DNA of 8,831 nucleotides from a virus (taxonomy: Duplodnaviria > Heunggongvirae > Uroviricota > Caudoviricetes). The notes beneath the pieces were generated by a model. The model was not told the DNA's origin, did not search any database, and worked only from the letters and a program-made list of their open reading frames with translations. A program made the position numbers and the translations under genes. The DNA lies in the IMG/VR virus record IMGVR_UViG_2648501498_000009; one strand, 5' to 3'. Of this stretch, positions 68 through 6,419 are shown piece by piece. Positions within the stretch are counted from its first letter, which is position 1; every line of letters starts with the position of its first letter.

Positions 68-176
68 ATCCGAACTCTTTACCCGTCCTTGGGTCCCTGT
101 AGCAGTAATATCCATTGTTTCTTATATAAAGGTTAGGGGGTAAATCCCGGCGCTCATGACTTCGCCTTCTTCCCAT
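68..176 (-). pseudogene. int: Integrase N-terminal fragment (lambda Int-like, about 36 codons) truncated by the IS insertion
   Basis: Minus-strand translation from the ATG at 176 gives MGRRRSHERRDLPPNLYIRNNGYYCYRDPRTGKEFGL, matching the lambda Int N-terminus as I recall it. It then runs into the IS terminus. The start overlaps the xis 3' end as in lambda. Confidence 0.75.
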
Positions 177-372
177 TTTTGATCCTCTTCAAAAGGCTAC
201 CTGTTACTGGTCGATTTAAGTCAATTTTTACCGCTGATTCGTGGAACAAATACTCTCTTCCATCCTTAACAGGAGGAGGGAATATCCTGCACTCGCGTAC
301 CCATCGACGAACTGTTTCAAGGCTTCTTGGGCGCCGCTGGCGTGCGTTCCACTCCTGAAGTGTCAAGTACAT
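154..372 (-). CDS. xis: Excisionase Xis (72 aa), lambda-type
   Basis: The 72-aa ORF MYLTLQEWNARQRRPRSLETVRRWVRECRIFPPPVKDGREYLFHESAVK… is near-identical to lambda Xis as I recall it. Position and overlap with the int start fit lambda. Confidence 0.9.
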   Translation of the reverse strand: MYLTLQEWNARQRRPRSLETVRRWVRECRIFPPPVKDGREYLFHESAVKIDLNRPVTGSLLKRIKNGKKAKS

Positions 373-398: not shown

Positions 399-422
399 GA
401 AAAAGCCGCCATCAGGCGGCTT
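396..422 (-). terminator. Intrinsic terminator on the minus strand, upstream of xis
   Basis: Hairpin GCCGCC-ATCA-GGCGGC (405-420) flanked by A/T pairs, followed on the minus strand by TTTTTCTTG. Confidence 0.5.
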
Positions 423-590
423 GGTGTTCTTTCAGTTCTTCAATTCGAATATTGGTTATGTCTGCATGTGCTATCTGCGCCCATATCATCCAGTGGTCAT
501 AGCAGTCATTGATGTTCTCTGCTTCGATAACTCTGTTGAATGGTTCTCCATTCCATTCACCTGTGACTCGGAAGTGCATTTATCATCTCC

Positions 591-821: not shown

Positions 822-1424
822 ATGAGCTATTTTCTGCGCAAAAAATGGATGGTAAATTTGTCCGGGGCAGGAAAAATTTTATGGGCGCTAAACATGAAAA
901 AAGATTCGTATCCTTATTTGATTTGCATGACAGTTTCAGGCCTGATCTTTATTTTCCTTTTCTTCTGGTGGCGGGCAGATATTTACAGGGTCACGTTTCT
1001 TAATCAGAGTATATCCCACTATTACATTCTGTTTAGCATGGGAATAGCTTTTCTGTTATCTCTGTTTTGGGTTAAGAAGGGGATAGTAAAACAAAGCGGC
1101 TGGAAGAGTCTGTCAGCATACCTTAAGGTTTATGCAGGGATGTGCATATTTGCTGGATTTTTTCTGATTATACCCCTTACAACACTAACTTATTTTTTGC
1201 CTGGAGAGACATCGTCTTATGTTGCACCGTATCGGTATACTTCCGGTAGTTCAAAAAGTTGTTCTGGAGCTGAGGTGGATGACCCCGATCTACATGAGAA
1301 TATTCGCATTTGCTATCCGTATGGCAATTATGAGTACGATAATATTATCTATGTTGAAAAGAAAATTAATACATTAGGTGCGGTAGTAACATATGCACAG
1401 ACCGCGCGTGATGATACTGAATGA
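822..1424 (+). CDS. Hypothetical membrane protein (200 aa from first ATG; alternative starts at 849 or 894), 3 predicted TM helices plus a roughly 75-aa C-terminal soluble domain; cargo gene of unknown function
   Basis: Long ORF in a visibly AT-rich block, on the strand opposite the pL operon. Three hydrophobic segments (YLICMTVSGLIFIFLFFWW, YYILFSMGIAFLLSLFWV, VYAGMCIFAGFFLIIPLTTLTYFL). A hairpin lies downstream. I recognise no homolog. Confidence 0.6.
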   Translation: MSYFLRKKWMVNLSGAGKILWALNMKKDSYPYLICMTVSGLIFIFLFFWWRADIYRVTFLNQSISHYYILFSMGIAFLLSLFWVKKGIVKQSGWKSLSAYLKVYAGMCIFAGFFLIIPLTTLTYFLPGETSSYVAPYRYTSGSSKSCSGAEVDDPDLHENIRICYPYGNYEYDNIIYVEKKINTLGAVVTYAQTARDDTE

Positions 1425-1458: not shown

Positions 1459-1496
1459 TCGAGGTAATATAATTTACCTCGACTCGTTTATTCTGG
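1459..1496 (+). terminator. Candidate intrinsic terminator for the plus-strand membrane-protein gene
   Basis: Perfect 9-bp stem TCGAGGTAA/TTACCTCGA with loop TATAAT (1459-1482), followed by T-rich CTCGTTTATTCTGG. It sits in a convergent intergenic region. Confidence 0.45.
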
Positions 1497-1634
1497 TATT
1501 AATATTTCGCTTTACGATCGATTTTTATCTGATGATATCATGCGGTTTTCATATACTGACTTACTGTCTTTTCTCCGTTAGCGATTTTCTCCTGCTCAGC
1601 GATGATTTTATCTTTGGCTTCTAGTTAATTTCGC

Positions 1635-1856
1635 TCACTTCGAACCTCTCTGTTTACTGATAAGTTCCAGATCCTCCTGGCAACTTGCACAAGTCCGACA
1701 ACCCTGAACGGCCAAGCGTCTTCGTTCATCTATCGGATCGCCACACTCACAACAATGAGTGGCAGATATAGCCTGGTGGTTCAGGCGGCGCATTTTTATT
1801 GCTGTGTTGCGCTGTAATTCTTCAATTTCTGATGCTGAATCAATGATGTCTGCCAT
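1635..1856 (-). CDS. TraR/DksA-family C4 zinc-finger protein (73 aa), phage Orf73-like
   Basis: Same length as TraR (73 aa), with CxxC-x17-CxxC (CCECGDPIDERRRLAVQGCRTCASC) and the conserved N-terminal acidic region. I recall a lambda pL-operon TraR homolog called Orf73. Confidence 0.75.
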   Translation of the reverse strand: MADIIDSASEIEELQRNTAIKMRRLNHQAISATHCCECGDPIDERRRLAVQGCRTCASCQEDLELISKQRGSK

Positions 1857-1908
1857 CTTTCATTAATCCCTGAATTGTTGGTTAATACGCTTGAGGGTGA
1901 ATGCGAAT

Positions 1909-1932
1909 AATAAAAAAGGAGCCTGTAGCTCC
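1909..1932 (-). terminator. Weak terminator-like hairpin between the 93-aa ORF and the TraR-like gene
   Basis: 5-bp stem GGAGC/GCTCC with loop CTGTA (1918-1932), followed on the minus strand by TTTTTTATT. Confidence 0.3.
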
Positions 1933-1954
1933 ATGATGATTTTGTTTTTCATGC

Positions 1955-2236
1955 TCACCGTTCCTTAAAGACGCCGTTTAACATGCCGATCGCCAGGCTT
2001 AAATGAGTCGGTGTGAATCCCATCAGCGTTACCGTTTCGCGGTGCTTCTTCAGTACGCTACGGCAAATGTCATCGACGTTTTTATCCGGAAACTGCTGTC
2101 TGGCTTTTTTGATTTCAGAATTAGCCTGACGGGCAATACTGCGAAGGGCGTTTTCTTGCTGAGGTGTCATTGAACAAGTCCCATGTCGGCAAGCATAAGC
2201 ACACAGAATATGAAGCCCGCTGCCAGAAAAATGCAT
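1955..2236 (-). CDS. Hypothetical early-left protein (93 aa from the ATG at 2236; possible 71-aa form from the ATG at 2170)
   Basis: ORF in operon orientation between orf63 and the TraR-like gene. Neither candidate start has a convincing Shine-Dalgarno. It occupies the lambda orf61/ea slot but I cannot confirm identity. Confidence 0.45.
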   Translation of the reverse strand: MHFSGSGLHILCAYACRHGTCSMTPQQENALRSIARQANSEIKKARQQFPDKNVDDICRSVLKKHRETVTLMGFTPTHLSLAIGMLNGVFKER

Positions 2237-2246
2237 TCAGTGGTTG

Positions 2247-2438
2247 TCATACCTGGTCTCTCTCATCTGCTTCTGCTTTCGCCACCATCATTTCCAGCTT
2301 TTGTGAAAGGGATGCGGCTAACGTATGAAATTCTTCGTCTGTTTCTACTGGTATTGGCACAAACCTGACTCCAATTTGAGCGAGGCTATGTGCCATCTCG
2401 ATACTCGTTCTTAACTCAACGGGAGATGCTTTGTGCAT
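2247..2438 (-). CDS. orf63: Lambda Orf63-like protein (63 aa)
   Basis: [23 protein letters not shown]…AEADERDQV matches my recollection of lambda orf63 in length, sequence and position. Confidence 0.7.
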   Translation of the reverse strand: MHKASPVELRTSIEMAHSLAQIGVRFVPIPVETDEEFHTLAASLSQKLEMMVAKAEADERDQV

Positions 2439-2599
2439 ACAGCTCCCCGTTTATTATTTATCTCCTCAGCCAGCCGCTGTGCTTTCAGTGGATTTCGGAT
2501 AACAGAAAGGCCGGGAAATACCCAGCCTCGCTTCGTAACGGAGTAGACGAAAGTGATCGTGCCTACGCGGATATTATCGTGAGGATGTTTCATCGCCAT
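2411..2599 (-). CDS. orf60a: Lambda Orf60a-like protein (62 aa as called; 60 aa if started at 2593)
   Basis: …[56 protein letters not shown]… matches lambda orf60a as I recall it. It lies immediately downstream of exo. Confidence 0.7.
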
Positions 2600-4572: not shown

Positions 4573-4705
4573 TCTTTGGGACTCCTGGCTGATTAAGTAT
4601 GTCGATAAGGCGTTTCCATCCGTCACGTAATTTACGGGTGATTCGTTCAAGTAAAGATTCGGAAGGGCAGCCAGCAACAGGCCACCCTGCAATGGCATAT
4701 TGCAT
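4541..4705 (-). CDS. cIII: cIII (FtsH protease inhibitor), 54 aa
   Basis: Internal ATG at 4705 gives [54 protein letters not shown], matching lambda cIII. It overlaps kil by 32 nt as in lambda. Confidence 0.9.
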   Translation of the reverse strand: MQYAIAGWPVAGCPSESLLERITRKLRDGWKRLIDILNQPGVPKNGSNTYGYPD

Positions 4706-4777
4706 GGTGTGCTCCTTATTTATACATAACGAAAAACGCCTCGAGTGAAGCGTTATTGGTATGCGGTAAAACCGCAC

Positions 4778-5310: not shown

Positions 5311-5337
5311 CAAAAATAAAGGCCGACTATGCGGCCT
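5311..5337 (-). terminator. Intrinsic terminator immediately downstream of the 149-aa membrane-protein gene
   Basis: Stem AGGCCG/CGGCCT with loop ACTATG (5320-5337), followed on the minus strand by TTATTTTTG. It starts 5 nt after the stop codon. Confidence 0.55.
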
Positions 5338-5799: not shown

Positions 5800-6099
5800 T
5801 CAAATAAGTGGTTTGCTGCCTAATTTCATTTTCTGGCGACCAACACAAGTCACACCCATTTCACTGCGTGGCTTGCTGTAGTAAATACGGTTCTGTTTAC
5901 GCTCGACTTCTTCTGCCTTCTGGCAGCGAAGGCTTCCGAGTGATGCTGCTTTATCTGCTCTGACGCAACCAGAGAGCTTTAGCGCAATCTTTCGCGCCAG
6001 TCGCTGCTCTTGCATTGCCTGTTCACGTTGAGCCTGTCTGCGTGCTCTGCGGCGATTTCTGGCGTTATCGTCAGCCAGATATGTAATGACTACTGTCAT
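5800..6099 (-). CDS. N-family transcription antitermination protein (99 aa)
   Basis: Strong GGAGG RBS. N-terminal arginine-rich motif (NARNRRRARRQAQREQ). The C-terminus KQNRIYYSKPRSEMGVTCVGRQKMKLGSKPLI resembles lambda N (…KNQRTWYSKPGERGITCSGRQKIKGKSIPLI). It is the first gene downstream of pL/nutL. Confidence 0.85.
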   Translation of the reverse strand: MTVVITYLADDNARNRRRARRQAQREQAMQEQRLARKIALKLSGCVRADKAASLGSLRCQKAEEVERKQNRIYYSKPRSEMGVTCVGRQKMKLGSKPLI

Positions 6100-6212
6100 G
6101 TTGACCTCCGATGATTGACTTTAGCGGTGACGTGACGGGGGGTGGGAGGTTAATTCCCTGATGCTGTCGCGCGGCTGCACTTCACATCACCCCAAAGCCA
6201 ACTACTCTTTGG

Positions 6213-6255
6213 TTCCCGCATTTCGGCGGGACAATCCCATCAATGTTAAAGAGCC
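6213..6255 (-). promoter_or_regulatory. nutL (boxA plus boxB)
   Basis: Minus strand reads GGCTCTTTAACA (boxA) then the hairpin TCCCGC-CGAAAT-GCGGGA (boxB). The boxB core is identical to the one in nutR at 7367-7384. Confidence 0.65.
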
Positions 6256-6289
6256 TGCCAATCTGTTCCGTTTGGCTACCAGCGTCCTG

Positions 6290-6335
6290 CTGATGACTTA
6301 AATTTAAGATTTCTTTAATTTGTGGTCAAGAGTGT
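6290..6335 (-). promoter_or_regulatory. pL promoter with oL operators (P22-type ATTTAAG…CTTAAAT sites)
   Basis: Minus-strand -35 TTGACC (6324-6329) and -10 TAAATT (6301-6306) at 17-bp spacing. An 18-bp operator ATTTAAGATTTCTTTAAT (6302-6319) overlaps it, with further TTAAG/CTTAA sites nearby. Confidence 0.5.
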
Positions 6336-6393
6336 TTTTGAAGAAAACTTAAATTTTATTGCAGGGCTTAAGTTTTGCTTTGATTTTTAAAGG

Positions 6394-6419
6394 AAAGAAA
6401 AAAGGGGCGAATGCCCCTT
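6394..6419 (-). terminator. Intrinsic terminator for the repressor gene
   Basis: Stem AAGGGGC/GCCCCTT with loop GAAT (6402-6419) followed on the minus strand by TTTTTTCTTT. The repressor stop codon lies inside the hairpin. Confidence 0.7.

Follow-up and report, generated by a model that had tools for sequence, protein, structure and literature searches.

The window, that is, the whole stretch of 8,831 nucleotides that was analysed, corresponds to the early-left arm and the immunity region of a lambdoid prophage. On its - strand, a pL-like promoter is followed in order by an N-like gene, cIII, kil, gam, bet, exo, orf60a, orf63, orf61 and orf73. The gene under study, orf73, had been placed in the early-left operon by the first-pass annotation of this DNA, and this placement is borne out by synteny and by the location of all these genes on the - strand. 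The features of the window are the following:

154-372 (-), xis
412-579 (-), orf55
1621-1638 (-), remnant of ea22, GTG-AGC-GAA-ATT-AAC-TAG (MSEIN*), overlapping the orf73 stop (alignment)
1635-1856 (-), orf73, encoding a 73-aa TraR-family C4 zinc-finger protein, A49 allele (ORF, Pfam PF01258, PHROG 54, PDB matches, identity with lambda Orf73)
1863-1958 (-), small ORF of 31 codons, with a GTG start overlapping the orf61 stop and an internal ATG at 1952 (ORF call, annotations, conservation)
1867-1871 (-), Shine-Dalgarno-like AGGGA for orf73, within the last codons of the small ORF (read from the sequence)
1906-1917 (-), U-tract UUUUUUAUUAUU, encoding Phe-Leu-Leu of the small ORF (sequence, fixed codon use)
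1918-1932 (-), stem-loop GGAGCU-ACA-GGCUCC, the predicted terminator t2 of Bloch 2014 (scan, fold, listing in PMC4195576, conservation)
1955-2236 (-), orf61 homologue, full-length, 93 aa (PHROG 303, E 2.5e-43)
2247-2438 (-), orf63
2411-2599 (-), orf60a
2507-2529 (-), stronger terminator-like hairpin inside orf60a, -18.1 kcal/mol, the predicted t1 of Bloch 2014 (PMC4195576)
between orf60a and the N-like gene (-), exo, bet, gam, kil, cIII and ea10
5800-6099 (-), N-like antitermination gene (PHROG 271 'anti-termination protein N-like', E 1.6e-36)
6214-6254 (-), putative nutL, with a boxA-like GCTCTTTAAC (6254-6245) and the hairpin UCCCGC-CGAAAU-GCGGGA (6231-6214) (read from the sequence, by analogy with lambdoid nut sites)
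6301-6329 (-), pL-like promoter, TTGACC, 17-nt spacer, TAAATT, between the repressor and N-like genes (consensus scan)
6418-7068 (-), P22-C2-type repressor
after the repressor (+), cro, cII and the first ~120 codons of a lambda-type O

The scan located terminator-like sites of the - strand before orf73 at 5337, 5194, 4754, 2529 and 1932. The one inside orf60a (2507-2529) is presumably the classical tL3. The N-like protein showed no match in Pfam. The loop of the putative nutL hairpin has a length of 6 nt (CGAAAU), unlike the boxB elements of lambda and P22, which have pentaloops.

The orf73 gene and its product

The orf73 ORF starts with ATG, stops with TGA and encodes 73 aa (MADIIDSASEIEELQRNTAIKMRRLNHQAISATHCCECGDPIDERRRLAVQGCRTCASCQEDLELISKQRGSK). 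The gene is therefore complete, as the first-pass annotation had stated. The same annotation had described the product as a TraR/DksA-like zinc-finger protein and had proposed a search with the Pfam profile zf-dskA_traR. This profile (PF01258) matched residues 33-64 with 35.8 bits, above the cutoff of 24.9 (E 7.7e-9), and the product also matched PHROG 54, 'DksA-like zinc-finger protein' (E 2e-25). Both matches are far above chance. In a phmmer search of the PDB, the product matched TraR (5w1s, 6n57) and YbiI (2kgo) with the cysteines in register. The description is correct.

The absence of the four zinc-coordinating cysteines had been set beforehand as the result that would speak against this description. 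All four are present: C35, C38, C56 and C59 form a CxxC-x17-CxxC zinc site and align with the cysteines of TraR. An alignment of the orf73 product, lambda Orf73, the homologues of five other lambdoid phages and TraR of the F plasmid showed invariance of D3, D6, A8, C35, C38, C56, C59, R46 and R47. The invariant DxxDxA motif is N-terminal and reads D3-I-I-D6-S-A8. The two arginines, R46/R47, align with R48/R49 of TraR, which make contacts with the rim helices and the beta' Si3 of RNA polymerase. Two extra cysteines, C36 and C53, are found in the orf73 product and are the same as in lambda Orf73.

The cutoff of NCBIfam TIGR02419 (C4_traR_proteo) was narrowly missed, with 55.7 bits versus 59.7 (E 5.6e-15), in a match spanning the full model (residues 3-64 on profile positions 1-64 of 64). 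Lambda Orf73, whose activity has been established by experiment, is a single residue apart, and its score against this profile is expected to be about equal. A single-sequence AlphaFold2 model of the 73-aa product had low confidence (pLDDT 58.5) and placed helices at residues 5-30, 43-47 and 56-70; a Foldseek search of the PDB with this low-confidence model returned no fold match. The published AlphaFold model of lambda Orf73 has a pLDDT of 93 (PMC8614690), and the gene, its zinc finger and the TraR-like model are reviewed in the same work.

The orf73 product is identical to lambda Orf73 in 72 out of 73 residues (99%), with A49 in the place of V49 as the sole change, and it is identical to the allele of phage 434. 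The exact protein is encoded in 57 of the 70 close loci of IMG/VR, and A49 is commoner than V49 among natural alleles. At the DNA level, positions 1623-2300 share 98% identity with lambda and 99% with phage 434. The gene order exo-orf60a-orf63-orf61-orf73 is kept, and the lambda locus likewise has orf61 and the small ORF upstream and the start of ea22 overlapping the orf73 stop. Judged by near-identity and synteny, 1635-1856 (-) is orf73 of the lambdoid 'exo-xis' block and the orthologue of lambda Orf73. The lambda protein is said to have been named Orf2310 (lambda nt 30392-30613) by Liu et al. in 2013.

The first-pass annotation had ascribed to this gene a TraR-type binding of RNA polymerase and a reprogramming of host transcription, and the near-identical lambda protein does act in this way. 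Purified lambda Orf73 occupies the DksA site of RNA polymerase, in competition with DksA itself (Gopalkrishnan 2022, PMC9239242). It inhibits rrnB P1 without ppGpp with an IC50 of ~50 nM, an activity weakened by D3N and D6N, and it complements a dksA deletion (PMC9239242). In the same study, phage yield (burst size) was 3-4 fold higher with orf73, and hosts grew more slowly when a defective, non-replicating prophage expressed Orf73 from pL. The A49 protein of the window would be expected to act like the V49 protein of lambda. The TraR/DksA assignment is thus already in the literature, including the rrnB P1 assay which the first-pass annotation had proposed, and since the function has been shown for a protein one residue apart, this copy adds nothing new on the protein. 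In general terms, orf73 is one route for a temperate phage to take over host transcription without the stringent response.

In the comparison with TraR of the F plasmid (PDB 5W1S, 6N57/6N58), the common characters are the length of 73 aa, DxxDxA at residues 3-8, the CxxC-x17-CxxC site, the paired arginines and a predicted C-terminal helix. On the other hand, the orf73 product is only 32% identical to TraR and carries the two extra cysteines; TraR is encoded in the tra operon, whereas orf73 is a phage early gene. TraR and lambda Orf73 share the IC50 on rrnB P1 and the independence from ppGpp (PMC9239242). However, lambda Orf73 barely activates the tested promoters, with little or no activation of thrABC, argI and rpoH P3, possibly because of its two extra cysteines (PMC9239242), and it is therefore not a full functional copy of TraR. 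E. coli DksA shares with the orf73 product the Pfam zinc-finger domain, the site in the secondary channel of RNA polymerase and an acidic tip motif. It differs in being about twice as long, with its aspartates on a coiled coil, compared with 73 aa and a predicted single N-terminal helix here. DksA also requires ppGpp for full activity (PMC9239242).

The hairpin and the small ORF upstream of orf73

Upstream of orf73, the stem-loop is followed by a U-tract, which consists of UUUUUU (1917-1912) and then AUUAUU (to 1906). The element thus has the form of an intrinsic terminator, i.e., a G+C-rich stem-loop with a subsequent U-tract on the transcribed strand. The hairpin has 6 pairs, 4 of which are G-C, a loop of 3 nt and a folding energy of -8.6 kcal/mol, values for which the earlier wording 'weak' is fair. 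Shuffles of the hairpin gave -3.3 +/- 1.7 kcal/mol (z -3.1), and 1 out of 200 folded as well. In the whole window, there are 26 terminator-like sites versus 9.0 +/- 2.8 expected. Rfam showed no family at the hairpin.

The first-pass annotation had also placed a terminator just upstream of orf73. The hairpin and T-run are real, but they do not lie in a spacer. There are 61 nt between the end of the stem and the ATG of orf73, and both the hairpin and the U-tract are contained in the 31-codon small ORF at 1863-1958 (-). A role of the hairpin on the + strand was considered separately and rejected: its reverse complement is followed by ATGATGATTTTG instead of a T-run, and the 200-aa ORF of the + strand has its own terminator-like site at 1459-1482.

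Two terminators, t2_lambda and t1_lambda, were predicted for lambda and phi24B (Bloch 2014, PMC4195576). The published t2 and the element of the window share the site between orf61 and orf73, the core GGAGCUACAGGCUCC and the U-tract. They are one base apart (published ATCAGGGAGCT, window ATCATGGAGCT), with an energy of -8.3 kcal/mol in Bloch 2014 versus the -8.6 computed for the window. The lambda locus has the same core and U-tract, but its hairpin is formed by 8 pairs; a single G-to-T change beside the stem removes the two outer pairs in the window, and the energy changes from -10.2 (lambda) to -8.6 kcal/mol. This G-to-T variant is the commonest haplotype among close relatives, and the hairpin is invariant in 70 close loci. 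By RT-qPCR, the lambda mRNAs of orf73, ea22 and ea8.5 were less abundant than the mRNAs of the genes that precede t2, a correlative result (PMC4195576). In phi24B there is no such drop, and orf73 reaches a high level despite a hairpin identical to that of lambda (PMC4195576). Bloch 2014 compared two identical sequences and thus offered no comparative evidence, and that work makes no remark that t2 sits within a conserved small ORF.

The small ORF ends 6 nt before the orf73 ATG in the window and 1-6 nt before it among relatives. The Shine-Dalgarno sequence of orf73 lies in its last codons; its counterpart in diverged relatives is CGGGAG, and the records of phage 434 and lambda imm434 give an RBS at the corresponding site. 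The 31-codon ORF is also present in lambda, and in phage 434 and Lambda_2E9 it is an annotated CDS. The consensus of the peptide (30-31 codons) is MKALITR[SE]LK[RA]PFLLLAFTFNRINRQFREH. The peptide is conserved in 75 distinct haplotypes with synonymous variation of the codons. For instance, the C-terminal half R-I-N-x-Q-F-R-E/D is kept through synonymous changes, and one of its arginines uses five codons. The small ORF showed no match in PHROG. Ribosome profiling, as related second-hand in PMC8614690, detected a 31-aa peptide, 'orf2313', in this region of lambda. By its length and position only, the small ORF is probably the counterpart of orf2313. In some of the loci L123-L291 the frame is open further upstream, and the peptide there may be the tail of a longer protein.

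For the comparative analysis, ~280 loci with relatives of Orf73 were gathered from IMG/VR, with an identity of Orf73 down to ~50%; some of them match Enterobacter phages. These relatives gave 110 distinct upstream sequences. A hairpin with a T-run was found in 85 of the 110; its distance to the ATG is 56-62 nt in 77 of them and 23 nt in the other 8. When the same detector was applied to 108 nt upstream, 84 of 109 haplotypes were positive, versus 0-15 of 109 in each of eight control windows.

At least five stem cores occupy the same position, namely GGAGC/GCUCC, GGUCGC/GCGGCC, GGGAC/GUCCC, GGGGC/GUCCC and GCCUCU/AGAGGC. The GGUCGC/GCGGCC class pairs one base out of register, because the coding frame forbids indels. 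Column-wise covariation over all relatives is thus impossible; it was counted in the 19 sequences of one pairing register, and the shifted class was described separately. In these 19 sequences, 91.4% of the cells are paired, versus at most 71.7% after sliding of the 3' arm, changes on both sides occur in 4 of the 8 stem pairs, and the covariation score was reached by none of 500 shuffles. In the peptide, the amino acids specified by one arm change together with those of the other, as E-A, S-R, G-V and P-E. The codons of the U-tract are almost fixed, with TTT in 75 of 75, TTA in 70 of 72 and TTG in 60 of 70 cases. At its other positions, the small ORF mostly uses TTC for Phe and CTG for Leu. 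Judged from the codon table, selection acts on both the RNA and the peptide of the small ORF.

One clade has no small ORF; it retains this stem, closed by a UUCG loop, in a genuine spacer at a distance of 23-24 nt from the ATG of orf73. The Stx-phage-like clade (L091-L120, and L010 from phiSTEC1589-Stx1c, 366-390) has an orf73 homologue which is 71% identical and an unrelated upstream gene. Its 47-nt spacer includes a GGAGC/GCUCC stem, a UUCG tetraloop and U6. As the stem is kept after an unrelated gene, the terminator seems to cross a mosaic boundary together with orf73.

The compensatory changes of the stem and the fixed codons of the U-tract support a real intrinsic terminator. These comparisons argue for a selected RNA element of terminator form, which travels with orf73, and the hairpin would probably terminate transcription. 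The protein and the predicted terminator t2 have both been published already, and in this respect the observation is correct but ordinary. The modest new value is comparative: as read from the aligned relatives, t2 gains covariation support and is a terminator-like element written into a conserved micro-ORF that abuts orf73. With its covariation and its location in a micro-ORF, the control of orf73, ea22, xis and int becomes directly testable.

Proposed expression of orf73 and alternative explanations

Taken as a whole, it is highly probable that the locus is orf73 of the exo-xis block, encoding a TraR-type inhibitor of RNA polymerase which is expressed from pL with the help of N, behind a short intrinsic terminator. 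On loss of the repressor, the pL-like promoter (6329-6301) would fire, and the N-like protein, together with the probable nutL, would let RNA polymerase pass the terminator-like sites. In this scheme, orf73 would belong to the delayed-early part of the pL operon, some 4.4 kb downstream of its promoter. Several terminator-like sites stand before it, and for this reason RNA polymerase would have to be N-modified to reach it. The dependence of orf73 on N is thus what its position in the operon predicts. The last barrier would be the short intrinsic terminator at 1906-1932, 61 nt before the ATG and within the 31-codon ORF. With its predicted N-terminal DxxDxA helix, C4 zinc globular domain and C-terminal helix, Orf73 would then enter the secondary channel at the DksA site. 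There it would inhibit the promoters of rRNA and ribosomal proteins without ppGpp, resulting in slower host growth and more phage.

Two alternatives concern the element before orf73. The hairpin and T-run may not be a working terminator, and may instead be a by-product of small-ORF coding or another RNA element, for example one that stabilises a 3' end or is a target of processing; this reading retains a modest chance of being correct. It would agree with the location of the element wholly within a conserved small ORF, with the short stem, which is weaker than that of lambda, with the lack of an Rfam family at the hairpin and with the high expression of orf73 in phi24B despite the identical hairpin (PMC4195576). 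Moreover, ribosomes on the small ORF, if it is orf2313, could stop the hairpin from forming. Nevertheless, the covariation of the residues encoded by the arms is required by base pairing and by no obvious protein constraint, and the almost exclusive use of TTT, TTA and TTG after the stem departs from the codon use elsewhere in the same ORF. In addition, the stem and the T-run persist, in a true spacer, in the clade from which the small ORF is missing, and the role of a stabiliser would account for the stem but not for a selected U-tract. According to the other alternative, orf73 is mainly transcribed from its own sigma-70 promoter, p1, which lies over the hairpin (-35 TCATCA, -10 TTTTATTAT), and is independent of pL and N. 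The BPROM score of p1 was 4.82 (Bloch 2014, PMC4195576), the best -10-like hexamer, TATTAT, lies within the U-tract, and the RNA of orf73 and ea22 was high in phi24B after induction with H2O2 (PMC4195576). The predicted promoter is, however, weak. The consensus scan gave none on the - strand at this site, and the 21 nt from TCATCA to TATTAT are too long a distance for sigma-70. In diverged relatives, the hexamer has become TATTGC or TATTGT and the '-35' is altered, whereas the hairpin is kept. Ribosome profiling also places the synthesis of lambda Orf73 at 5-20 min after pL induction, alongside the other pL genes (PMC9239242). A main role for p1 is thus decidedly improbable.

The third alternative refers to the protein and holds that Orf73 acts mainly in a specific way, by promoting lysogeny or by blocking host replication ('bin'), and not through a general reprogramming of transcription. 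When orf73 was deleted, host survival fell and lysogenisation became less efficient (Wegrzyn laboratory, as summarised in PMC8614690). Another group, cited in PMC8614690 and PMC9239242, reported a lower phage yield and a shift towards lysogeny due to Orf73. Orf73, ea22, ea8.5 and orf55 are further implicated in blocking the initiation of host replication (PMC9239242). On the contrary, the biochemistry of lambda Orf73 indicates binding of RNA polymerase and promoter-specific inhibition, and dnaA mRNA was reduced weakly if at all (PMC9239242). The 'bin' and lysogeny phenotypes may also stem from the same effect on RNA polymerase, so that the two roles are not exclusive. As the main role of Orf73, such a function seems quite unlikely, and the inhibition of RNA polymerase is the preferred reading.

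The placement of t2 in a micro-ORF suggests attenuation that is sensitive to translation. In leader-peptide attenuators of the pyrBI type, a short ORF runs through the hairpin of an intrinsic terminator, and a close ribosome could block termination. By analogy only, the arrangement in front of orf73 is the same, with a short ORF running through the terminator hairpin. It differs in that the peptide of the small ORF is itself conserved and in that the operon already has N antitermination. The hairpin and the small ORF may tentatively be seen as a dual-coding module, in which translating ribosomes would mask the stem, and the readthrough into orf73, ea22, xis and int would be set by the coupling of transcription and translation together with N; we consider this unlikely on present grounds. 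If true, an attenuator module would stand before a protein that itself shuts down ribosome synthesis.

Mosaic joints and the state of the prophage

The prophage had been called otherwise defective. Gene O is indeed cut after ~120 codons, at ~8106-8120, by an IS4-family element of the ISEc13 type (8106-8831; NCBIfam transpos_IS4_3, E 1e-75), but this insertion is the sole support for a defect within the window. The IS end CTGTCTCTTGATCAGATCT and the adjoining sequence form a 14-bp perfect inverted repeat (palindrome 8121-8151). We take this end to resemble the inside end of IS50. The O::IS junction gave no match among GTDB representative genomes in an exact search, and none among complete E. 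coli genomes, of which none contained more than 90% of the window either. As lambda Orf73 slows its host from a defective prophage (PMC9239242), a defective prophage that is SOS-inducible and has an intact repressor, N-like gene and orf73 could still cost host growth.

Downstream of orf73, the homology with lambda ends in the ea22 remnant, where DNA of the phage 434 type starts (blast breakpoint at query position 224, i.e., window 1623). Here, ea22 gives way to this DNA after five codons. The same replacement is found in the viable phage 434 and is therefore not a defect. The 434-type DNA (~600-1622) carries an ORF of 200 aa on the opposite strand, at 822-1424 (+), which belongs to PHROG 1416 (unknown function) and is a 'putative membrane protein' in the record of phage 434. 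With its own terminator-like hairpin at 1459-1482 (+), this ORF has a moron-like arrangement.

The orf61 homologue is one ORF of 93 codons in the window and in phage 434, with an A6 run at window 2105-2110. In lambda, an A7 run splits it into 'orf61' and a second ORF, in agreement with the truncated look of lambda Orf61 noted in the literature (PMC8614690).

The control region (5800-7721) is mosaic and includes the P22-C2-type repressor, a P22_Cro and the N-like protein (PHROG 271). It is flanked by lambda-type cIII, gam, bet and exo on the one side and by lambda-type cII and O on the other. Rfam Lambda_thermo, the thermoregulator of cIII, matched at 4660-4718 (-) with 88.5 bits (E 4e-21). Between xis and orf55, an 8-bp G+C-rich hairpin (403-422) is terminator-like on both strands, and the record of phage 434 has an annotated terminator at the corresponding site (PMID 6305007).
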